Positions 817 to 63,657 of a DNA stretch of 64,000 nt are shown here, piece after piece. The translations under genes and the position numbers were made by a program. Origin of the DNA: Nitrosopumilus sp. (GTDB lineage: Archaea; Thermoproteota; Nitrososphaeria; Nitrososphaerales; Nitrosopumilaceae); contig CBDBLX010000002.1 of assembly GCA_965207445.1 (NCBI GenBank), positions 1,271,849-1,335,848 on the forward strand, given 5' to 3'. How positions within the stretch are numbered: position 1 is the first letter of the stretch; the number at the start of each line of letters is the position of its first letter. The notes beneath the pieces are model-generated. The model was not told the DNA's origin. It worked only from the letters and a program-made list of their open reading frames with translations, and did no database searches.

Positions 817-1413
817 ATGATGAATATGAATGTCAAGAGTAAGGTGCTCAAAGACGACAATGAACTACAAAAGTTCATAATTCTACTGGCAAGTGCTGCT
901 GGTGGCAAACCCATTAAAGGAAACACCAAACTCCAAAAAATCCTGTTTTTATTATCGAATAGCATTGATGATATCCGAGAGTATGGGGATTTTGATGCAT
1001 ATCTTTATGGTCCGTACAGCGAGACAATCGACCAAGAATTACAATATCTGGGGCAGATCGGCGTACTTAGTAACACTCGTGGAGAGATCGCACTCACCGA
1101 AACAGGGAAAGAAATTGCAAAAGACATGACAAAAAATACGGACGGTGTCGTCCTTAAGGCATTAATCAAATACAAAGAGATTTTCAATGATCTTACAAAT
1201 AAAGAGTTACTTGCATACGTTTATTCAGCATATCCGGACATGGCCAAGGAATCTGCAGAATATGAGAATCTAAGACCCAACATGGAAGATCATATTATGG
1301 CTCTAGTCAAAAAACACAAGATTAGTGCGCAGCGCGCCGCTGAACTGACAAAGAAACCCCAGGCCTATGTCATAAAAAGAATGAAAGATTATGGAATACC
1401 AATTTTAGGATGA
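817..1413 (+). CDS. YwgA/SocA(Panacea)-like putative antitoxin with C-terminal HTH-like segment
   Basis: 198-aa ORF with KLQKILFLL...FDAYLYGPYS motif. Confidence 0.6.
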   Translation: MMNMNVKSKVLKDDNELQKFIILLASAAGGKPIKGNTKLQKILFLLSNSIDDIREYGDFDAYLYGPYSETIDQELQYLGQIGVLSNTRGEIALTETGKEIAKDMTKNTDGVVLKALIKYKEIFNDLTNKELLAYVYSAYPDMAKESAEYENLRPNMEDHIMALVKKHKISAQRAAELTKKPQAYVIKRMKDYGIPILG

Positions 1414-1416
1414 GCT

Positions 1417-1640
1417 GGTTCTCCTGCAAACGCGGTTGGTGGCAATTAACACAGATTTGAACCGTTGCAGTCAATCCGGACACGTAACTAGTATTTTGTC
1501 GCCACGTGTGATAAACTTCAAACCCTCTGAGGTTACCAAGTTTGGCAAGGACCGGCTTTGGAATGTACGAGTAACTAGTTACCCATTTTCACGTTGTGGG
1601 TTATGGATACTTGGAATTCAGTTAGGGCATTGGCAGCCAA
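1417..1640 (-). mobile_element. IS6-type end fragment with degenerate small AbrB-like gene, copy 1
   Basis: Starts GGTTCTCCTGCAAA (resembles the IS6 TIR GGTTCTGTTGCAAA); near-identical to 63380-63600 and to the reverse complement of 31460-31677. Confidence 0.65.
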
Positions 1641-2522
1641 TGGTGATTTCATTAAAGATCCGATAGTTTTTAGATATTCTTATAATCACATATTAGGAAA
1701 TCAGGCAGGCCCCATGTTGTAATCCATACATACTTCATGATTTTTCCATGGGCATGTGTATGCCAGCCGTGTATTTAGGCGTGGCAAAAGGTATGTGCGC
1801 AGCCGTCCTGATCATAGTGCGATCTGTGCGTCGCACAGCCTCACCCGGACCACCTAGTTCGCGTAATATGCAGTTCATACAGCCCGGAGTTCCGGTATTA
1901 GCGCGTTGTTCTTTGCGTCTTGTATGGCATTGCACATGTACTCTAGTAGCCTGACTGTTCCCACCTCACCGTTTCCCATCATGTGTAGTATGGACTTTTG
2001 CATCTCTGGAAAACCGCCCTTGTAGTATCTGCCTGCCAGTGAACGCTTTATCTCGCGCCATTGGATCTCTATGGGATTGTACTGAGGAGTGTATGGCGGC
2101 AAGTACCATAGTGCGACTTGGCCTCTTGTCTGTTCCAGATACTGCTTGATGTCTTTGGACTTGTGCGCAGATGCATTGTCACATATGACAAATACCTTGC
2201 CGTACTTTTCTCGGAGCATCTCCAACAGTTTTATGACGTTTACAGTATTCGCACTGTCGCAAAAGTGCAGGTGGCACGTGTCGGCCCCGAGTGCACCCGG
2301 CATTTTCATGCTCGTTTTTGAAAAGTTGACATTTACAGTCTCAGAGCCTCCCCGGGGATATAGTCCGCGCGCGACATACGGCGAGTTTGTGATTGCAGAG
2401 ACGTCCATACAGAACACCTCATAGCCGGCGCGGGCGTGCGCCATGGTGGCGTGTATTGCGTCGTGTACATCATGCAGTTCTTCTAATGGACTGGCAGACT
2501 TGTGGTGGATTGGCCTGGGGCA

Positions 2523-2632
2523 TACTGATATGATTAAAGATCCGATATTTTGATTGATATTCATCTCGAAGTTGAGCACATATTATAAATACAAAATATT
2601 AGAAAACTATCGGATCTTTAATGAAACTATTA
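2523..2632 (+). mobile_element. 110-bp MITE (family B), copy 1
   Basis: Imperfect TIR containing ATTAAAGATCCGATA; 4-bp TSD GGCA. Confidence 0.9.
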
Positions 2633-2720
2633 GGCATTCTTATTGAAAAGCCCATCCTGTGAGCTAGCACCAGGGCTCCGGTCCACGTGTACTGGACGTC
2701 AAAAATGTTTACCAGATGCA

Positions 2721-2830
2721 TACTGATATGATTAAAGATCCGATATTTTGATTGACATTCATCTCGAAGTTGAGCACATATTATGAATGCAAAATATTAG
2801 AAAACTATCGGATCTTTAATGAAACTATTA
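2721..2830 (+). mobile_element. 110-bp MITE (family B), copy 2
   Basis: Near-identical to copy 1; TSD TGCA. Confidence 0.9.
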
Positions 2831-3031
2831 TGCAATGCAAACAAGGCGGCAGTCCATGTCCCACGCTCAAAGCCACTTTGCATCGGTTCCTTGCTCAGAT
2901 CGGCCTTTGCCTGTTCTTGTTGTGCTTTTGTGAGTCTGCACGGCCTGCCGGGGGATCTTGCGGTCATATCTGCCCTCCAATCCCTCTGACTGTAGCCTGT
3001 TGAACCACTCGGATATGACACCCTGACTGCG

Positions 3032-3141
3032 TAATAGTTTCATTAAAGATCCGATAATTTTCTAATATTTTGTATTCATAATATGTGCTCAACTTTGAGA
3101 TAAATATCAATCAAAATATCGGATCTTTAATCATATCAGTA
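3032..3141 (-). mobile_element. 110-bp MITE (family B), copy 3
   Basis: Inverted copy; TSD TGCG. Confidence 0.9.
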
Positions 3142-3396
3142 TGCGTCCGAGCTGGGCGGCTATTGCAGACTCACTCTTGCCCTTTTTTCGCCCAACTGCT
3201 GCCTGCAGCCTGTCACAGGACTTGCCCGGAGACTCTTTGCGGTAGGCGGCTTTTAGATCTTCTCCTATGATAACTCCCGAGCGTACGAGTCGTACCTTTC
3301 CGATATTTCATCCGTCTCATGACTACCAAGTACAGAGTGTAGTTTATAGCTAACGCTAAGGGTTAATCTGTACATATGCATACGCGGCAGATGTGC

Positions 3397-4491
3397 TTAT
3401 GCCTTGTTCTGTCGTCGTCTCTCCAGCTTGGCCAATTTGCGCTTGTACAGATCTTCGTTGCGTGACTCGTAGCTAGTATTGTTTTGGAGCATGTGCCACA
3501 TGATGTTCATCATTTTATTCGCGACTACGACAACTGCAAGCGCATGCTTGTCTGCATGTCGTTTGCGTGCTGCTTCGTATGCGGCTTTCATTCTCAGATC
3601 ATGTCTGGCCGCCACACTGGCAGCCTCACACATTATCCAATTTACAAGCCGGTCTGTGCCTGCCTTTTTTATCTTTCCAAGACGCATCTCATTACCTGAT
3701 TGTCTTATTGTAGGACAGAGCCTCGCCCATGAGATCATTTGTTTGGGAGTCTCAAACCTCGATATATCCGATATCTCAACTGCCAATAGTATGGCCGCAT
3801 ACGTGCCAATACCTGTCATACTGACAAGCAGTTTTGCATACTCATTTTGAGCTGCTTCGGCATCCAACTGTTTGTCAGTTTCTACAAGCTCGCTTGTGTA
3901 GTGTTTGATTTGTCTTACACACTGCTTTAGTACAAAGTTATCCTGTGCATCACCGAGATTGAGAGTGTCCAGATAGAATAGTGCCTTGTGAGAGTACATG
4001 TTGGCCGCATGTGCGGCCTTACCATGAGCATCAAGCAGGTTGTGTATTTGGTTTATCACCTTGGTTCTTGCCTGTACCAGACGTACATGCTGCCTCACAA
4101 GATTCCTAATTGCACGTATGTGCTTTGATGGAATGTAACACTCTGGAATGGAATTCATCCTGAGTATCTGTGCTATCTTTTCTGCATCTATCTTGTCAGT
4201 CTTTTTTCCAGTCTTGTTGATCAGTGCCATCTTGTACGAATTGGCAAGCTTGATCGGAATGCCAACATCTTCAAACGCATTAACTGTCGTAATCCACAGG
4301 TTAGCTGTGGTCTCGCATGCTGCAGTGCATTTTCCCATCTTACCATACTTGTCAAGTATGGCGTGTGCACATTGTCTTGCATCCTCTTGCGTGTTAAAGT
4401 ATTGCCCACGGTCGAGTACCTTGCCCCTATTGTTAACTACACAATAGTCACACTTTTTCTTGCTAATGTCTATACCTATGCTTATCTTCAT
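3397..4491 (-). CDS. IS110-family transposase/recombinase
   Basis: GIDISKK, ACETT, KTDKIDA DEDD motifs; PTIRQSG catalytic-Ser motif; AGGAGGTGA Shine-Dalgarno-like site upstream. Confidence 0.95.
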   Translation of the reverse strand: MKISIGIDISKKKCDYCVVNNRGKVLDRGQYFNTQEDARQCAHAILDKYGKMGKCTAACETTANLWITTVNAFEDVGIPIKLANSYKMALINKTGKKTDKIDAEKIAQILRMNSIPECYIPSKHIRAIRNLVRQHVRLVQARTKVINQIHNLLDAHGKAAHAANMYSHKALFYLDTLNLGDAQDNFVLKQCVRQIKHYTSELVETDKQLDAEAAQNEYAKLLVSMTGIGTYAAILLAVEISDISRFETPKQMISWARLCPTIRQSGNEMRLGKIKKAGTDRLVNWIMCEAASVAARHDLRMKAAYEAARKRHADKHALAVVVVANKMMNIMWHMLQNNTSYESRNEDLYKRKLAKLERRRQNKA

Positions 4492-9184: not shown

Positions 9185-11329
9185 GTGCGTGTAATGAGTA
9201 ATGCTTCTGCCACCACACGTGAGAATAAGATTTTACGCGATAAACTCGCGCACATGTGGAAGTTTGTAAACGTCATAATGGAAGCATGGGGGGAGCAGGC
9301 TGCCATGTTCATCGATGAGATCAAGAGACTTGAAGGCAAAGTCGAGAGTCTGAAAACATACTGTGATGAACTCAAAGAACAACTGCAAGATGCAAAAAGG
9401 CTTTTAGCAATGCATGAGAACTATAACAACCCAGACAGGGGGACGAAGACTGCCCATGATAGGCAGAAACACAGACAGGCGTTGAGAGCCGAGAGTGAAG
9501 AGAATGTGCAGTGTGCCATGGATGTGGAAAAGGAAAAAAGCAGTAGAAAATCTGGCCTGCGACATCGCGGCGGCCAGCCCGGTTCAAAGGGCATGTCGTG
9601 TAGCCTAAAACCAGACAGGAAACTAGATGATTTATGCGCGCCCGAAACATGCGTCCGGTGCGGCAGAACTGACATCATACATTTAGGATTCCTATGGAAG
9701 ATGGTACTTGAAATACGCGAGTATGGCGACCGGTTCTGCACAAACCCAGGACCATTTGAGAATCCCAAAGAGATGGTGGATAATTTGCACATGAACGGAG
9801 CATTGTTTGCCTATATGGAGGCATCAGTTCCTGCAATCTGCTTGCAGTGTGAGGTGATCATCTACCCAGAGACGCCGTCGATCCCAGGATCGTCGTGCGG
9901 ACCGATCTTGCGCGAAAAGATCATGAACCTGCACGGGCAAGTGCCACCCGTGCAGCGCATACACAATATACTTGCCGCAAACCATCATACTGAGATCGGC
10001 ACAGGCACCATCTCAAAGTGCCTAAAGGCAATATCACAACACGCTACGCACGACTGTTTGTGGGTAAAGGCACCCCGTGATATTATTGAGGATGTAAAGG
10101 CGGCCTATAGCACTGATACAAAAAAGTCAGAGACATCTACTAATGAAATGGTCGCATATACTGAACAAGATGATAATGGTGAGGAGACAATCATAATGAC
10201 TGCACACTCTGAGCCTCCTGTTGCCATGTTCTGGCAACAACCTGCTGCTGAACCACCAAAACTAAAATCCGAAGACTCTCCCCTACCTGAGACGACGCTT
10301 GTGCCGTATACTATACCTGACACACACATGCACAGCGTCCTCCCGCCACTATTCACCCAGATATACGAGATGATCACAATGGCCCCCAATATTATGTGGG
10401 ACAAGTCAAATGCAAAGGTAGCAGGACACCGTCGACAGACGCTCGTACTGCTCTGTCCCGGAATTGCCACCATGATAAAAATTACAGACAGTAAATCAAA
10501 AAATCTCATACAATACATGTTCCCGGATCTGCTTGGCAGACTTCTCCAGGCCGACATGTATCTTGCAGGCAATGCGTTTGATGGTGACATACAGACATGC
10601 CGTGTACACCTCTGGCGTCGAGGCGAGTCGTTGGCAGTATTGCACGGCATACACTCACCAGAACAGACGTACTCTGAAGAGCATCTCAATATATTCAGAC
10701 TCTCAAAACGCGCAGGTGAACATATAACCCAGCTGGCCGGCGGCCCGCTCACATCTATCTGCGAGGTTGACAGTGTGATTCGAGCCATACCTGGACTCTC
10801 ACAAACAATAAGTGATGAGGTCGACGTACTAAATACTCGCATGCTCAAATTGATAGACGCGTACCGGCACGGTGAGGTCTCTGATGAAGACACGCACAAA
10901 TACGCCACCTCACTTGAGAATGCACTACCATACATGTTTACATTTCTGTGGCATCCGGGTATGCAAGGTCACACAAATGACATTGAGCGACTCATCAAGA
11001 AATGCAACGTATTGCCGCGCAAGATGCAAGGGGGACTTCCAGACTGGACGGCTGCAAAAACGCAGGCCAACCTGCAGACCATACATGCAAACTCTGCTCT
11101 GTGGGGCGTATTCTCAGGACAATTGGTATCGGGATATCGCGGCAGTTGGAAGCCTCCACCATCAGATTCAATCACAATAATGTCCACGTCGTCGCCTCCA
11201 CCATCATCACAGAGACCACATCCGCGTGTCACCAAAAAACATATCACGAAATCCTCTGATCCATTAATACAAGCACATGACCTCATCTGCATACCAAAAT
11301 CACAAAATGTCAAGGTCGCTGCCGCATGA
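9185..11329 (+). CDS. IS66-family (TnpC-like) transposase, divergent, 714 aa
   Basis: Coiled coil, GGQPGSKG, CxxC...CxxC, QTCRVHLWR and HTNDIER motifs. Confidence 0.75.
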   Translation: MRVMSNASATTRENKILRDKLAHMWKFVNVIMEAWGEQAAMFIDEIKRLEGKVESLKTYCDELKEQLQDAKRLLAMHENYNNPDRGTKTAHDRQKHRQALRAESEENVQCAMDVEKEKSSRKSGLRHRGGQPGSKGMSCSLKPDRKLDDLCAPETCVRCGRTDIIHLGFLWKMVLEIREYGDRFCTNPGPFENPKEMVDNLHMNGALFAYMEASVPAICLQCEVIIYPETPSIPGSSCGPILREKIMNLHGQVPPVQRIHNILAANHHTEIGTGTISKCLKAISQHATHDCLWVKAPRDIIEDVKAAYSTDTKKSETSTNEMVAYTEQDDNGEETIIMTAHSEPPVAMFWQQPAAEPPKLKSEDSPLPETTLVPYTIPDTHMHSVLPPLFTQIYEMITMAPNIMWDKSNAKVAGHRRQTLVLLCPGIATMIKITDSKSKNLIQYMFPDLLGRLLQADMYLAGNAFDGDIQTCRVHLWRRGESLAVLHGIHSPEQTYSEEHLNIFRLSKRAGEHITQLAGGPLTSICEVDSVIRAIPGLSQTISDEVDVLNTRMLKLIDAYRHGEVSDEDTHKYATSLENALPYMFTFLWHPGMQGHTNDIERLIKKCNVLPRKMQGGLPDWTAAKTQANLQTIHANSALWGVFSGQLVSGYRGSWKPPPSDSITIMSTSSPPPSSQRPHPRVTKKHITKSSDPLIQAHDLICIPKSQNVKVAAA

Positions 11330-11489: not shown

Positions 11490-11525
11490 ATGTTACCTGC
11501 ATGTTACCTGCATGTTACCTGCATG
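11490..11525. repeat. 11-bp tandem repeat ATGTTACCTGC x3
   Basis: Directly visible. Confidence 0.9.
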
Positions 11526-11698
11526 GCCACCATATCGCATACCATAACGCCTGTCCGATATCTGTCTAAGGTGGCAGCGTAAGTGGGTGAGAGTTGAGGG
11601 GAGGGGGTGGGGGTGAACGCTTGTTTACATGGTTACCATGCCACCATCAACGATACTTTTATACCTCATATTACTACATTAAACAGGGACGAATACAC

Positions 11699-11794
11699 AT
11701 GGCCAAAAAAATAACCAAAGAAGAGAAAGAAAAAATCATAGAGGATCTTCTAAGCAAGCACTATAAGGTATACGATCGGCTGGCAGAACTGTAG
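11699..11794 (+). CDS. 31-aa putative antitoxin (MAKKITKEEKEKIIEDLLSKHYKVYDRLAEL)
   Basis: Its stop abuts the ATG of the next gene (MYYPTVHDVELVIEKINRH, Doc-like N-terminus), which IS481 cuts at 11851. Confidence 0.5.
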   Translation: MAKKITKEEKEKIIEDLLSKHYKVYDRLAEL

Positions 11795-11949
11795 ATGTAC
11801 TACCCAACAGTTCATGACGTCGAACTTGTTATTGAAAAAATAAACCGACATAAGTTGTCTTGTAAGTATCTATGTGGGATCCTTATAAGCGATTCTTCAC
11901 TTTTCGTACTAAAGTGCGCAGCATACGCTAGGGTGGTGTTTTTCCGGAG

Positions 11950-12080
11950 GGTGGTTCGGATATGTATCTATACGAGCATTAAATCTCAATACCATGCTTC
12001 ATCCATTCGTTAGGGGCACTATGCAGTTAGTTCCCCGAGCATTAAATCTCACACTTACAACGCACAAATCCCTAACCATA
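11950..12080 (-). ncRNA. Putative bridge (seek) RNA with target-binding and donor-binding loops
   Basis: 16-nt module CGAGCATTAAATCTCA repeated at 11973-11988 and 12036-12051, flanked by arms matching the donor junction and the target site. Confidence 0.8.
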
Positions 12081-12095
12081 ATTTTTCACATCTAT

Positions 12096-13319
12096 TCATT
12101 TTTTTTTCTTGGGGTTACGATGTGTACTCTTTTTACCCATCTCTACACATGTCCAAAAATCTATATTCTTTGTTAGCATCCAAAATACAATTTTGAGCAT
12201 CTTGGCAGCAGCGGCAACCTGTGCTTTTGAGACGCCTCTTTTCTCCTTTAATCTTTCATAAAATACACTTATTGGAGTCTGTCGATTATTATTCTTTGCA
12301 AACTGCACATGAGACAACACACATTCTGTGAGCAACTGTCGAACCATGGAATTTCCCATTTTCGTTATGGCACCATGGTGAACTGTACTGGCAGAATTCC
12401 TCACAGATGGAGCTAGTCCAAAATAAGCAACAAGACTGCCCATATCACGAAATCTTGAGATATCACCAATTTCAGATGATAATGTAAGCGCAGTCACAGG
12501 ACCGATTCCAGGCATCGTAGTCAAAAGTGAAGCGTGTTCGTTTTTTGATACTGCATTGGATATTTTATCATCACAATCACGAACATCATCATTTAAAAAT
12601 GCAATTGTTTTGATATGTTTGTCTATCCTCCAGTCATTAAGCTTGCGTAAATTTTGTATATGTTCAGCAGAAAATGGAATCCCTTTGATCTTGATTCCAC
12701 TTTGTAACAATATTGCATGAACACTATTTTTGGACTTTACTCTAGACTTTACTACTGTACTTCTATACCTGACCAATTGTCTATTATGTACATCCTTTTC
12801 CTCTGGAACATAACATCCTGCAATATATCCACCCCTTAGCAGATCTGCCAATATACGAGCATCTACTTTATCTGTCTTCTTTTTTGATTCAGCTATTCGT
12901 TTTGTTGCAAGTGGGTTTGATAACATCACATCCAAATGCAATTTTTCTGTGAGAAATCTATACATGCCATACCATACAGAAGAAGATTCCAACACGTATT
13001 TTGCATTGGGCGGAAACTCAGAAAATTCTTTTACAATATCAATATGATTGCACTCAATTCGTTTATTTTGTCGAACATTACCTTTAGGATCCATAATTGC
13101 CACTTGCATGAATTTTTTGTGAAGATCAATTCCAACAAAATATTTTTGAGCATTATCATATTTTACCGATGTTTTTGTGGTTGTTTTTTTCACCTTGCTT
13201 ACGCTATGACTATCCATATGGTCATTTTTTCTACCCCTAATCTGTTTGTTTGCATTTTGCTTGTGCGAATCACGATCTATACCATCTGAATTTCTACTCT
13301 GCTGTGTTTTTCGTGCCAC
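12096..13319 (-). CDS. IS110-family recombinase, 407 aa
   Basis: VGIDLHKK, VLESS, KTDKVDA and GLAPSVRNSA motifs. Confidence 0.95.
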   Translation of the reverse strand: MARKTQQSRNSDGIDRDSHKQNANKQIRGRKNDHMDSHSVSKVKKTTTKTSVKYDNAQKYFVGIDLHKKFMQVAIMDPKGNVRQNKRIECNHIDIVKEFSEFPPNAKYVLESSSVWYGMYRFLTEKLHLDVMLSNPLATKRIAESKKKTDKVDARILADLLRGGYIAGCYVPEEKDVHNRQLVRYRSTVVKSRVKSKNSVHAILLQSGIKIKGIPFSAEHIQNLRKLNDWRIDKHIKTIAFLNDDVRDCDDKISNAVSKNEHASLLTTMPGIGPVTALTLSSEIGDISRFRDMGSLVAYFGLAPSVRNSASTVHHGAITKMGNSMVRQLLTECVLSHVQFAKNNNRQTPISVFYERLKEKRGVSKAQVAAAAKMLKIVFWMLTKNIDFWTCVEMGKKSTHRNPKKKK

Positions 13320-14578
13320 ATATGGTTAGTTCCGCCTTGAGTGTACGCCTAGATATAATCATATTTTATATGAAAGGTGTGATAAGTTTAGCTTTTATGC
13401 CCACTTGGAGAGAAAAGAAAATTGGCTACTAGTGGTGTAGATCCTCATATATCCGTGTGCGGAGTGGAAATGAAGGTGTGTGGGTCAAATCATGATCCTC
13501 GTACAAAGATCAAAACTAGGCTCAAAAATGGTAAAAAACTTCGTGTAATACATAAACTTGATGAGGAACAGGTACGGTGGATAGTTCAGCAAAAGCACAA
13601 TGATGAGATGAGTGACACCCAGATTGCAAAATTAGTGGGTGTATCTGCACGATGGGTTAGAAAATTGTTCGTACGATATGGTCATTTACAGCCAAAAGAT
13701 ATCACATATCCTCCAAAGATGGGACGTCCTTCTAATGGATTACCAGGCCGTCGAGAACATTCTGCAGTGATATCTTGTTGCAAGCAGAACAGACGTATGG
13801 CAGTCAGACTCGATACTAATAGAAGAAGAAATCGGAATCCATATTTCTCACAATATCATATATAGGATATTGAAAGATGAGGAGTTAGTAGAAAACCAAC
13901 CAAAAAAAGCAAAGCAGCGAAAGTGGGTTAGATATGAGAGAAGATTCTCAAATTCTTTATGGCATACGGATTTTAAGCAGATTTACGATGGTAGATGGTT
14001 TGTGTCCTATCAGGACGATGCATCTAGGATGATCATGGGCTTTGGAGTGTATAATGAACCTACAAGTGATCATGCAATAAAGGTGCTTGAGGGCGCCATC
14101 AAGAAATATGGCAAACCTGCCCAAATACTAACGGATCATGGATCTCAGTTCTATGCAAATGAGAAAAAGAACTCTGAGCGCGGTGTAGCAGTATTTGAGA
14201 ACAAGTTAGTCGAGCTTGGTATCAAACAAGTCATGGCACGTATAAAACACCCTCAAACCAATGGTAAATTAGAACGATTCCACTCTGAGATTGAACAACA
14301 TCTAAAATCATTTGAAGAAGAGTCTGCATGTAATACAGTTCGCGGTTCCAAACCCGGCGACCATGTGGGGAATCCATTCCATACTATGGGTATAACAGAC
14401 CCAATAACAAGACTCATCAACTGGTACAATAATCTCCCACATATGTCACTAAAAGACGGTAAAGAGACGCCTATAGAAGCCTATAAACGCAAACAAGCAC
14501 CAAAAGACATAACAGCAAAAGAAATGGAGAGTCATACATATGTCAAATCATAAGTGGAATTACTTACAGGATAACACA

Positions 14579-14977
14579 CCACGGTGTTTGCCACCGGGGG
14601 GCTGGACGATCCGCGAGGTGTTGCGATCGGGCCAAAGTATACGGCGCCCGCCGCCACCGCCGGCGTACCACAACGACGCGCCGTCCATCACACTGCAGAA
14701 CTCCACACACGGCATCCCATTCCGCACAGAGCTCGCCCGGAATACCACTACGGACTACACCGTAACGGCCGCGGATCCAGAGGACGATCCGGTAACGTTT
14801 GCTCTAGTACCGCACGCAATAAAACGAGGTGCAATCACCTTATCAGATCACCACAATGCCACGGCAATCCTGTCGATCAACACGTCCCAAATGGACACGG
14901 GAACGTACACCTTTGAAATCACTGCATCAGACGGACATGACATTGAGCGCACGCTCTACGCGGTTGTGGTACGTTGA
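14579..14977 (+). pseudogene. 3' remnant of a surface protein (NHL-like repeat plus cadherin/Ig-like domain), truncated by IS481
   Basis: GGLDDPRGVAIGP then NDAPSI...VTAADPEDDPVTF...GTYTFEITASDG, in two frames. Confidence 0.6.
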
Positions 14978-16413
14978 GCCGCAAGCGACTAACAGTCATA
15001 ATTGTAGCTTCGTTGACAGCCGCCTGCATTTTTGCTCTGGTTGCGGCGCCCACCCACACAGATAACATGGATGCCCCGATCCCGCCCCCTGCAGACTCGC
15101 CAAACGACATCTCGGACACCAATGAGGGGCACGCGGATGCCCCGATCCCGCCCCCTGCAGACTCGCCAAACGACATCTCGGACACCGGTGATGGGCACGC
15201 GGATGCCCCGATCCCGCCCCCTGCAGACTCGCCAAACGACATCTCGGACACCAGTGCAGAGTACACGGGTCCACAGATCCCATCGGAGGCGGCCTCGTCA
15301 AGCAACGCCTTTGCCATTGACATGTACAGGAAGCTAGCCTCAGATCCCAAACACAAGGACGAGAACGTATTCTTCTCGCCATTCAGCCTCTATATTGCCG
15401 CCTCACTCGTGTACGAGGGGGCGCGGGACGAGACCGCGTCACAGATCGAGCAGGTCTTTGACCTCGAGCCCGACGACCGCATGCGGCACGAGATCATATC
15501 CAATACGTCGTCTTCAATAAACCGCCACGATCCGCACGCGACGCTTGTCACTGCAAACGCGCTATGGCTCGACAGGGGATTCGACCCGTACCAAGACTAT
15601 GTGGACATAGTACGCGACGTATATCGTGCCGACATCGACCGCCTCGACTTTCTCAACGACGCGGAGAACGGAGCCAAGCGTATAAACGCTTGGGCAGGTG
15701 ACAAGACCCAAGACAGGATCCCCGAGGTGGTGACCCCGAAAGATGTCTATCGGGCAGCATCCGTGTCCACCAACATGATATACTTCAAGGGCGCGTGGGC
15801 AGCGCAGTTTGATCCCGCCGACACCCACAGGGGCGCGTTCTGGAGGACCGATGCCTCCAAGGCCGAGGCGGACTTTATGCGCAACACGGCATTTTTCAAC
15901 TATGCAGAATCAGACCTGGCACAGATTCTGCAGATGCCCTATGAGGGCGGCAGGCTCTCGATGCTGGTGTTTCTGCCGTCGGAGCGCGACGGCATACGCG
16001 ACCTTGAGGATGTGATCTCTGCGCAGCGCATAAAGACGTGGAAGGAAGGCATGTCGACCATGGAGGTTACGGTCCTGATGCCAAAGTTTGAAATGGAAAC
16101 ACACTATGAACTCAACGATCACCTGACGAGCCTCGGGATGCCGCATGCATTTGATCCGATATTGGCGAACTTTTCAGGAAAAGTCGATCTCACAAAAATA
16201 CCGGAGAACCTATACGTGAGCAGCGCCAGCCAGAGCGCGTTTGTCAAGGTGAACGAAGAGGGCACGGAGGCAGCGGCCGTTTCTGTCTTTATAGACAAGG
16301 TTACTTCAGAACCGCCCAAATTCATTGCCGATCGCCCGTTCATCTTTGCAATACAGGATGATGCAAGCGGCACAATACTGTTCATGGGACGCGTGTCGGA
16401 TCCCGCGAAGTGA
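14974..16413 (+). CDS. Secreted serpin with N-terminal Pro/Asp-rich repeats
   Basis: NVFFSPFS, IYFKGAW, VNEEGTEAAA hinge, FIADRPFIF and ILFMGRV motifs; signal peptide. Confidence 0.95.
   Translation: MSRKRLTVIIVASLTAACIFALVAAPTHTDNMDAPIPPPADSPNDISDTNEGHADAPIPPPADSPNDISDTGDGHADAPIPPPADSPNDISDTSAEYTGPQIPSEAASSSNAFAIDMYRKLASDPKHKDENVFFSPFSLYIAASLVYEGARDETASQIEQVFDLEPDDRMRHEIISNTSSSINRHDPHATLVTANALWLDRGFDPYQDYVDIVRDVYRADIDRLDFLNDAENGAKRINAWAGDKTQDRIPEVVTPKDVYRAASVSTNMIYFKGAWAAQFDPADTHRGAFWRTDASKAEADFMRNTAFFNYAESDLAQILQMPYEGGRLSMLVFLPSERDGIRDLEDVISAQRIKTWKEGMSTMEVTVLMPKFEMETHYELNDHLTSLGMPHAFDPILANFSGKVDLTKIPENLYVSSASQSAFVKVNEEGTEAAAVSVFIDKVTSEPPKFIADRPFIFAIQDDASGTILFMGRVSDPAK
15070..15252 (+). 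repeat. 66-bp coding tandem repeat x~2.8 (DAPIPPPADSPNDISDT..)
   Basis: Units start at 15070, 15136 and 15202. Confidence 0.95.
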
Positions 16414-31106: not shown

Positions 31107-31398
31107 GATATATCAAACTCCACCCACTACACCCATAGTTATGTTTTGTGACATTAAGATCTCTTGCAAACGCAGTTGGTCGGTGTTTATATGTACTTTT
31201 TATCTGAATTTGGTATTTGATGCTAAAAAGGTGTAAATTTTTAGTACTCTTTTGCGTGACTATGACGATAGTTTGGGATAGGGATAGAGTTAGTATCAAA
31301 AAGACAAACGGTGGATCACCTGCCGCCTTTTCTTCCTGAACTGTTTTTTGTTTCATTGTACATATACCACCAATTGGATGTATAACCATGCATATGTG

Positions 31399-31677
31399 CA
31401 ATCTAATGTCAGTGACGTTATAACGCTAGATTGACAACAACAAACATTGACTAAATGGGCTGCCAATGCCACTGAATTCCAAGTATCCATAACCCATAAC
31501 GTGAAAAGGGGTACTAGTTACTCGTACATTCCAAAGCCTGTCCTTGCCAAACTTGGTAACCCAGAGGGTTTGAAGTTTATCATACGTGGCGACAAAATAC
31601 TAGTTACGTGTCCGGATTGACTGCAATGGTTCAAATCTGTATTAATTGTCACCCGCCGCGTTTGCAAGAGGAGAACC
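31399..31677 (+). mobile_element. IS6-type end fragment, copy 2
   Basis: Homologous to 1417-1640 and 63380-63657; ends TTTGCAAGAGGAGAACC. Confidence 0.65.
31447..31620 (+). CDS. 57-aa AbrB/MazE-like DNA-binding protein (below the ORF-track cutoff)
   Basis: TTG start; MTKWAANATEFQVSITHNVKRGTSYSYIPKPVLAKLGNPEGLKFIIRGDKILVTCPD*. Confidence 0.65.
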   Translation: MTKWAANATEFQVSITHNVKRGTSYSYIPKPVLAKLGNPEGLKFIIRGDKILVTCPD

Positions 31678-50335: not shown

Positions 50336-51662
50336 TGTGCTATCCTGTAAGTAGTTCCACTTATGATTTGACATATGCATGACTCTCCATTTCTTTTGCT
50401 GTTATGTCTTTTGGTGCTTGTTTGCGTTTATAGGCTTCTATAGGCGTCTCTTTACCGTCTTTTAGTGACATATGTGGGAGATTATTGTACCAGTTGACGA
50501 GTCTTGTTATTGGGTCTGTTATACCCCTAGTATGGAATGGATTCCCCACATGGTCGCCGGGTTTGGAACCACGAACTGTATTACATGCAGACTCTTCTTC
50601 AAATGATTTTAGATGTTGTTCAATCTCAGAGTGGAATCGTTCTAATTTACCATTGGTTTGAGGGTGTTTTATACGTGCCATGACTTGTTTGATACCAAGC
50701 TCGACTAACTTGTTCTCAAATACTGCCACACCGCGCTCAGAGTTCTTTTTCTCATTTGCATAGAACTGAGATCCATGATCCGTTAGTATTTGGGCAGGTT
50801 TGCCATGTTTCTTGATGGCATCTTCAAGCACCTTTATTGCATGATCACTTGTAGGTTCATTATACACTCCAAAGCCCATAATCATCCTAGATGCATCGTC
50901 CTGATAGGACACAAACCATCTACCATCGTAAATCTGCTTAAAATCAGTATGCCATAAAGAATTTGAGAATCTTCGCTCATACCTAACCCACTTTCGCTGC
51001 TTTGCTTTTTTTGGTTGGTTTTCTACTAACTCCTCATCTTTCAATATCTTATATATGATATTGTGAGAAATATGGATTCCGATTTCTTCTTCTATTATAG
51101 TCTCGAGTCTGACTGCCATACGTCTGTTCTGCTTGCAACAAGATATCACTGCAGAATGTTCTCGACGGCCTGGTAATCCATTAGAAGGACGTCCCATTTT
51201 TAGAGGATATGTGATATCTTTTGGCTGTAAATGACCATATCGTGAGAACAATTCTCTAACCCATCGTGCAGACACCCCCACTAATTTTGCAATCTGGGCG
51301 TCACTCATCTCATCATTGTGCTTTTGCTGAACTATCCACCGTACCTGTTCCTCATCAAGTTTATGTATTACACGAAGTTTTTTACCATTTTTGAGCCTAG
51401 TTTTGATCTTTGTACGAGGATCATGATTGGGCCCACACACCTTCATTTCCACTCCGCACACGGATATATGAGGATCTACACCACTAGTAGCCATTTTTCT
51501 TTTCTCTCCAAGTGGGCATAAAAGCTAAACTTATCATACGCTTCATATTAAATATGATTATATCTAGGCGTACACTCAAGGCGGAAGTACTTACATTGAC
51601 GATTATTCCTATGATCATATCTAGGCGTACACTCAAGGCGGAACTACTTACAAGACAACTTA
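50336..51662 (-). mobile_element. IS481-family element copy 2, intact transposase 50361-51494
   Basis: TIRs; 15-bp TSD CTTCCGTAATTGATT at 50321-50335 and 51663-51677. Confidence 0.95.
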
Positions 51663-63379: not shown

Positions 63380-63657
63380 GGTTCTCCTGCAAACGCGGTT
63401 GGTGGCAATTAATACAGATTTGAACCGTTGCGGTCAATCCGGACACGTAACTAGTATTTTATCACCACGTATGATAAACTTCAAACTCTCGGGGGTTACC
63501 GAGTTTGGCAAGGACCGGCTTTGGAATGTACGAGTAACTGGTTTACTCTTTTCACGTTGTGGGTTATGGATACTTGGAATTCAGTTAGGCATTGGCAGGC
63601 TCATTTAGTCATGTTTGCTATTATCAATCCAACATTAACGTCACTGATATCGGATTG
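63380..63657 (-). mobile_element. IS6-type end fragment, copy 3 (AbrB-like ORF inactivated)
   Basis: GGTTCTCCTGCAAA end; ATG ACT AAA TGA on the minus strand. Confidence 0.65.

Follow-up and report, generated by a model that had tools for sequence, protein, structure and literature searches.

What places one insertion sequence (IS) inside the end of another? The question is raised by a 64,000-nucleotide stretch of a 2.6-Mb Nitrosopumilus sp. genome (contig CBDBLX010000002.1, here C2, positions 1271849-1335848; "the window"), in which an IS110-family element, here called A1, interrupts an IS481-like element within the left terminal inverted repeat (IRL), 18 bp from the tip. An earlier note on this DNA had observed an IS110 element inside an IS481 repeat, which we confirm, and had proposed that the element is aimed at that repeat. 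We put at about 85% the probability that A1 is an IS1111-type IS110 element with a two-loop RNA, of the kind called bridge RNA or seekRNA, that directs it to IS481 repeats. Positions below are those of the window unless they carry the prefix C2 or that of another locus.

A1 in the terminal repeats of an IS481-like element

In the window, TAAGTTGTCTTGTAAGTA (11851-11868) breaks off and the sequence resumes at 13329-13336 as GTTCCGCC. Put together, the two parts make a 26-mer whose reverse complement stands at 51637-51662, where a second IS481-like copy (copy 2) has its left end intact; the claim that the element splits an IS481 left repeat, and that its removal restores an intact end, holds on the window letters. 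A TA dinucleotide stands at both junctions, which leaves an insert proper of 11869-13326, or 1,460 bp with one TA counted, and TA flanks all related elements. The left end (LE) of A1 lies at the high coordinate and its right end (RE) at the low one. The 13-mer TGTAAGTAGTTCC has two exact matches and two with one mismatch in the window, against 0.05 expected, and four were reached in none of 100 shuffles. The exact matches lie at 50346-50358 on the forward strand and at 51640-51652 on the reverse strand, and those with one mismatch at 14556-14568 and at 51583-51595, in an inner tandem copy of the left repeat. The earlier list of matching sites was right for 50346-50358 and 14556-14568; it had given 51653 as the end of the reverse-strand match and had missed the inner one.

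A search of the genome with A1 returned eight matches: the window copy, one further full copy, two copies and a fragment of a relative that is 66-70% identical to A1 (relative B), and three fragments. The second intact copy (C2:1749844-1751302, 99% identical) is preceded by …TGTGCTATCCTGTAAGTA and followed by GTTCCACTTATGA…, which together form the right terminal inverted repeat (IRR) of another IS481-like copy. The flanks of the window copy, in an IRL, are …TTGTCTTGTAAGTA and GTTCCGCC, those of the second, in an IRR, …CTATCCTGTAAGTA and GTTCCACTTATGA; both lie 18 bp from the IS481 tip, at the identical base and in the identical orientation relative to the motif. Four relics abut the same half-sites: an IRL tip with 51 bp of A1 (C2:601104), an IRL tip with 8 bp (C2:350129), a repeat tip with 185 bp of an 81% identical A1 variant (C2:1572310), and an LE end followed by GTTC (C2:944015). 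Genome-wide, all ten exact vacant matches to TGTAAGTAGTTCC fall within IS481 repeats, as do five of the seven with one mismatch. Insertions into both IRL and IRR at a fixed position and orientation, the ten vacant sites and the four relics, together with the matching guides described below, bear out the proposal that A1 is aimed at the terminal repeat of the IS481-like element, and flank mapping of the genome copies of A1 placed both intact ones within IS481 repeats.

Contigs from several sequencing runs touch this site. A form in which 11868 is joined through a single C to 13330, present in contigs of runs X1 and X3, was considered as an empty allele and rejected; it is the C-variant repeat of other IS481-like copies. 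One contig of run X5, from another study, crosses the junction of tip and RE with just 12 nt on the tip side, too few for bridging. The contigs of run X2 diverge at 11849, before the IS481 tip, into sequence not found in the assembly, and may represent a strain variant without IS481-like copy 1.

The host transposase carries an rve domain (3.5e-13), and its best NCBIfam match is IS481 (5.7e-45) with 154 bits, under the curated cut-off of 224, for which reason we call the host IS481-like. Its terminal repeats are 23 bp long and imperfect, with an identical core of 13 bp. Of the six copies in the genome, five measure 1,327 bp and have their left end duplicated in tandem over 57 bp. Target duplications of 15 bp, a length that those of IS481 can reach, flank four copies, and at least 10 bp of its own target duplication can be seen around the copy that hosts the second A1. 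The transposase frame is open over 387 codons in four copies, including this host, which carries A1 in its right repeat, and a further copy, c893, has an internal stop without any insertion. The copy split by A1 in the window (copy 1) is frameshifted, as the earlier note had said, its gene being broken into 13422-13865 and 13870-14553 in different frames; it has neither the 57-bp duplication nor a target duplication. A link between this frameshift and the A1 insertion was considered and rejected, c893 being broken without an insertion and the host of the second A1 keeping an open frame. Among 80 genomes of the genus, no IS481 of the same type was found above 71% identity.

The 57-bp duplication, which lies in the region 51520-51662 in copy 2 and occurs in four other copies, provides a second, inner repeat site. 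This inner site is exact in three copies and carries a C variant in two; the idea that it serves as a backup end protected by its mismatch was rejected, three of the five inner sites being exact. The single left-end unit of copy 1 resembles the outer unit at the site and the inner unit further in.

Transposase, predicted two-loop RNA and guides

The A1 transposase has the domains DEDD_Tnp_IS110 (PF01548, 1e-22) and Transposase_20 (PF02371, 9.2e-23) and scores 241.9 bits against the NCBIfam profile NF033542, "IS110 family RNA-guided transposase" (cut-off 140); distant matches in the PDB are ISCro4 (3.7e-9) and IS621 (7.1e-8). Only 7 bp precede the GTG start at LE, whereas the non-coding right end takes up 227 bp, from the stop codon (12096) to the RE end (11869). 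Sub-terminal inverted repeats of 7 bp are present as TATGTGG at LE nt 5-11 and its complement CCACATA, which finishes 2 nt short of the RE end. In elements of the IS1111 type, the transposase gene is reported to be followed by a guide RNA that picks the target, and the inverted repeats are sub-terminal (Siddiquee et al. 2024, PMC11187229; Durrant et al. 2024, PMC11208160). The repeats of A1 fall inside the range of 7-17 bp given in PMC11208160 and below the usual 11-13 bp given in PMC11187229. With its DEDD transposase domains, long downstream non-coding region, sub-terminal inverted repeats and predicted two-loop RNA, A1 has the traits of the IS1111 group and would be an active-looking member of it.

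A scan of 11500-14800 against Rfam 15 (E up to 1) gave no match, so we modelled the RNA from ten related sequences. The consensus fold has 22 pairs, eight of them with compensatory changes, and the covariance model built on it found 87 matches in 85 sources. The predicted RNA directly follows the transposase gene in 73 of the 77 related loci, which here and throughout are those of Nitrosopumilaceae, and the remaining four loci are cut short. Across 59 distinct RNA sequences, in an alignment fitted to the model, which favours structure, 98.4% of cells are paired, as compared with 34-43% when partners are slid, and 14 of the 22 pairs change on both sides. The 227-bp right end itself consists of two similar modules, each with a guide, a hairpin (GAGCATTAAATCTC on the forward strand) and a second guide.

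The candidate guides read directly onto the insertion site. In the target loop, the 3´ guide GGGAACUAA corresponds, in the same sense, to GGAAC-TA of the site, and the reverse complement of the 5´ guide UUGUAAGUG is CA-CTTACAA; together they give GGAAC-TA-CTTACAA, the reverse complement of TTGTAAG-TA-GTTCC, a stretch that coincides with the 13-14 bp common to IRL and IRR. In the donor loop, the 3´ guide UAUAGAUAC matches the RE end with the core (ATAGA-TA), and the reverse complement of the 5´ guide (…AUGGUAU) matches the start of LE (ACCAT). Relative B has ATCAT at LE where A1 has ACCAT, and ATGAT in its guide (AUGAU in the RNA) where A1 has ATGGT; both donor ends and both loops have changed together in this relative, and its hairpins have GGG/CCC in place of GAG/CTC in both loops.

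Guides and element ends were parsed in all related loci, and each guide family was compared with its own flanks and with those of the other families, a duplicated partial RNA (L016:3777-3933) having been excluded. On the left flank (37 guide families), 3.92 of seven positions match in a family's own flank and 1.59 in those of others, and matches run on from the core over 3.33 positions as against 0.31; on the right flank (36 families), the longest run is 6.25 as against 3.07. For each measure, the agreement with the own flank was reached in none of 5,000 permutations, a count that is not a clean probability because the guide families are kin. As far as sequence can tell, these comparisons support the description of the targeting as "programmed" by a guide RNA.

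A candidate promoter lies close to the RE end. Each of the clade's 37 distinct RE tails has, at positions -21 to -14 counted from its end, an A/T-only run of at least 6 nt (consensus GGAAATG-TTTAAAAA). The transposase frame begins at a GTG at LE nt 8-10 (13317-13319 in A1); of 73 distinct related elements, 62 keep it open for at least 300 codons and 11 have internal stops. When RE is joined to LE, the centre of the box and this GTG are about 27 nt apart, the box being upstream; archaeal TATA boxes usually lie at about this distance from the transcription start. A leaderless transposase mRNA could thus arise from the RE box only in the circle. Junction promoters are known in bacteria, and the arrangement would be their archaeal counterpart.

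Table 1. A1, its putative RNA and the IS481-like copies of the window, with variant IS481 sites elsewhere on the contig (BRE, B recognition element; ORF, open reading frame)
Feature	Position	Strand	Basis or remarks
Outer 18 bp (IRL tip) of IS481-like copy 1, severed by the insertion	11851..11868	+	Same as the first 18 bp of the copy 2 IRL (reverse complement of 51645-51662)
Core dinucleotide TA	11867..11868 (RE junction); second copy 13327..13328 (LE junction)	.	One TA in the uninterrupted site, one per junction when occupied
A1, IS110-family element of IS1111 type, 1,460 bp including one core TA	11869..13328	-	99% identical second copy, flanks, transposase domains
A/T box cTTATAAg, candidate archaeal TATA box	11883..11888	-	14-21 nt before the RE end, facing outward; purine-rich BRE-like stretch before it
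Putative bridge/seekRNA gene; its two internal loops have the same short hairpin as cap	11953..12080	-	Consensus fold; covariance model, 125.9 bits
Putative donor-binding loop	11964..11996	-	3´ guide RNA UAUAGAUAC, 11964-11972; 5´ guide RNA CAUGGUAU, 11989-11996
Putative target-binding loop	12027..12060	-	3´ guide RNA GGGAACUAA, 12027-12035; 5´ guide RNA UUGUAAGUG, 12052-12060; hairpin between
Transposase ORF, 407 aa, GTG start at LE nt 8-10	12096..13319	-	NF033542, IS110 domains
Rest of IS481-like copy 1: inner IRL, broken transposase (13422-13865, 13870-14553), IRR	13329..14578	+	97.2% identical to copy 2
Variant site TGTAAGTAATTCC in the copy 1 IRR	14556-14568		
IS481-like copy 2, intact, 1,327 bp	50336..51662	-	15-bp target duplication; ORF 50361-51494 (377 aa)
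Sites in copy 2	50346-50358 (IRR); 51640-51652 (outer IRL); 51583-51595 (inner)		Vacant; vacant; variant
Variant IS481 sites	14556-14568, 51583-51595; C2:1517106, 1518343, 1518400		

Weighing RNA-guided insertion

We propose that the guide RNA is made and would be required for insertion. Its target loop would pair with both strands of GGAAC-TA-CTTACA(A) in the IS481 repeat, and its donor loop with the joined ends of A1 itself (…ATAGA-TA-ACCAT…). Any IS481 repeat could then recombine through its TA with a circular A1 (RE-TA-LE), always in a single orientation, and each new IS481 copy would supply two to three landing sites outside host genes. It is reasonable to regard the IS481 repeats as a safe, self-multiplying target for A1. 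Splitting of a repeat would disable that IS481 end, and immobilization of the host by A1 is plausible since the outer 18 bp are separated from the rest of the repeat.

Several points weigh against this account, among them the kinship of the guide families and the fitted alignment already noted. The donor-loop 5´ guide pairs with just 5 nt of LE, and the guide register shifts by up to 2 nt between subfamilies. Guide-flank scores are at chance level in relative B (3-4), L021 (3), the right side of L009 (3) and a second RNA of L036 (2). A1 occupies only two of 12 canonical IS481 repeat sites. No close relative of A1 was found outside this genome: a protein search that included metagenome sources gave, at best, transposases 67-70% identical to that of A1 and one fragment of 235 aa at 84%, and no match in 40 relative genomes exceeded 77%, a value reached over a short stretch. 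The case for RNA-guided insertion draws on sequence and covariation only.

The alternative that survives best accepts the guide and questions the host. The aim of A1 could be a short sequence found in the IS481 repeat by coincidence, with the IS481-like element a secondary or recent landing site rather than a co-evolved host. Relative B and other relatives do sit at non-IS sites, and an element 56% identical to A1, in locus L013, shares its left guide GGGAACTAA yet sits in the repeat of a DDE_Tnp_1-type IS (GGTCAGTAGTTCCG) that resembles the IS481 repeat, which suggests that similar repeats may be interchangeable. Nevertheless, every exact site and both intact insertions are in IS481 repeats, the guides span exactly the stretch common to IRL and IRR, and the 81% identical relic carries a guide fitting a variant of the same repeat, so that we regard this alternative as improbable.

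Recognition of the site by the transposase protein or a host factor, with the RNA complementarity incidental, has in its favour that guides of 5-8 nt per arm can match A/T-rich DNA by chance and that guide-flank agreement is poor in relative B, L021 and L009. Incidental complementarity is hard to reconcile with the permutation result for the 36-37 guide families and with the joint change of guides and donor ends in relative B, and RNA-dependent target choice is reported for the IS110 family in PMC11187229 and PMC11208160; we consider this reading very unlikely. Least probable of all is that the two A1 copies are not independent, an IS481::IS110 composite having been duplicated whole or through recombination of one IS481 copy with another: the absence of both duplications from window copy 1 does point to a rearrangement there, but the two A1 insertions are at separate loci and in separate IS481 copies, one of them in the IRL and one in the IRR, the IRR-bearing host retains its own target duplication, and the relics mark further separate events.

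If A1 is guided by RNA to the IS481 repeats, the repeats might in turn escape it. Five of the 17 IS481 repeat sites are variant (Table 1), all at the base next to the TA core, with G changed to C four times and to A once, and the flanking 24 nt of the 17 sites show two changes only. One copy, c1517, has the C variant at all three of its sites and is intact, with an open transposase frame. The guide of the 81% identical relic, GGGAAUUAA, has GGGAAT in place of GGGAAC and fits the A variant. An arms race in which the IS481-like element escapes through the core-adjacent base and the guide is re-aimed, within a Nitrosopumilaceae clade living largely on IS ends, is a tentative idea that we hold to be doubtful; the variant-site events are few and partly linked, three being in one IS copy.

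The genome offers a clean archaeal natural example in which a candidate guide can be read against its target; occupied and vacant sites, relics and a retargeted variant are all present in it. With it, experiments could ask if elements of this sort hold back the proliferation of the IS that hosts them, and if that host gets away through substitutions of one base.

Relatives, precedents and neighbouring sequences

The ends of other mobile elements also appear as landing sites among the relatives of A1, and this group of IS110 elements of ammonia-oxidizing archaea often lands there, including in another IS110. One locus was taken per guide family in which both element ends were found, giving 31 families and 30 distinct loci (two families share L016). 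In 11 of the 30, the nearest large ORFs within 1.5 kb include one for a non-IS110 DDE transposase, of IS66, DDE_Tnp_1/4 or DDE_3 type. Five of these 11 (L013, L026, L066, L084 and L063) have an inverted copy, 19-24 nt long, of the reconstructed empty site beyond that transposase gene, which places the element in one terminal repeat and leaves the other vacant. Inverted matches of 17-18 nt in L053 and L022 are of less clear meaning, L051 is ambiguous, and L021, L076 and L082 have no inverted copy beyond the neighbouring DDE ORF.

The guides of an IS110 subfamily of the L080/L082 type match the TA inside the LE of another, of the L023 type (ACTA-TA-TGTG), and this is where it is inserted. The nested IS110 pair occurs in four copies in one genome (L068, L070, L072 and L085; about 1187-3842), and the outer flanks read for three of them differ, so the pair seems to move as a unit. 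In the nested pair, the outward TATA box of the inner element lies just upstream of the GTG of the outer one.

The habit of entering the repeats of another element has precedents. Müller, Lauf and Herrmann reportedly described in 2001 the integration of IS1383 into IS1384 inverted repeats in Pseudomonas putida H. Compared by title only, IS1383 and A1 both belong to the IS110 family and both are specific for the terminal inverted repeats of a different IS; IS1383 is bacterial with IS1384 as its host, whereas A1 is archaeal with an IS481-like host and has a guide readable from sequence. IS4321 and IS5075, to which the earlier note had likened the element, are said to integrate into the repeats of Tn21-family transposons. 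The analogy is apt, as they share with A1 the sub-terminal inverted repeats, a downstream non-coding region, and a single position and orientation in the terminal repeat of another element. Their target is a Tn3-family transposon and not an IS, and their hosts are bacterial plasmids; to go by its title, IS1383 is the closer precedent. A target logo for IS4321/IS5075 is mentioned in PMC11187229.

The seekRNA and bridge RNA systems, IS1111-type elements and IS621, share with A1 a DEDD transposase, an RNA with one loop for the target and one for the joined ends, and a core dinucleotide, and the IS1111 group, like A1, has the RNA in the right end. The A1 transposase is only distantly related to those of IS621 and ISCro4 (E 1e-8 to 1e-9), the core is TA in A1 and CT in IS621 (PMC11208160), and the expression signals of A1 (the putative TATA box and leaderless GTG), unlike theirs, look archaeal. 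The RNA-guided mechanism and the repeat-targeting habit are both already known in bacteria, so our observations extend known biology and do not amount to a new kind of system. What is new is the archaeal clade, the IS481-like target, the possible escape base, and a conserved candidate TATA box that would act only in the circle.

Two further repeat families lie in the window. One, starting with TGTCAGTAGTTCGCAATGTG, occurs at about 25063 and 63965 and in about 25 places in the genome; it differs from the IS481 repeat core by two mismatches, is similar to the repeat that the L013 element targets, and is probably the end of another IS or of a miniature inverted-repeat transposable element (MITE). 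No IS110 copy was found inside the TGTCAGTAGTTCGCAATGTG repeats of the genome. The other, of about 340 bp, has at least 20 copies at 90-96% identity, including C2:1400517-1400858 and, in the window, about 1419-1641, 31333-31670 and 63382-63656, and one copy of relative B sits a few bases past the end of such a repeat.

Pfam gave no match (E up to 0.001) for an ORF of 714 aa upstream of A1 (9185-11329). Right after IS481-like copy 1 comes a serpin gene (14974-16413; Pfam Serpin, 6.8e-105) with an N-terminal proline-rich tandem repeat, and serpin genes also adjoin IS110 relatives in two loci of other genomes (L009:136-1665 and L066:3817-5166).

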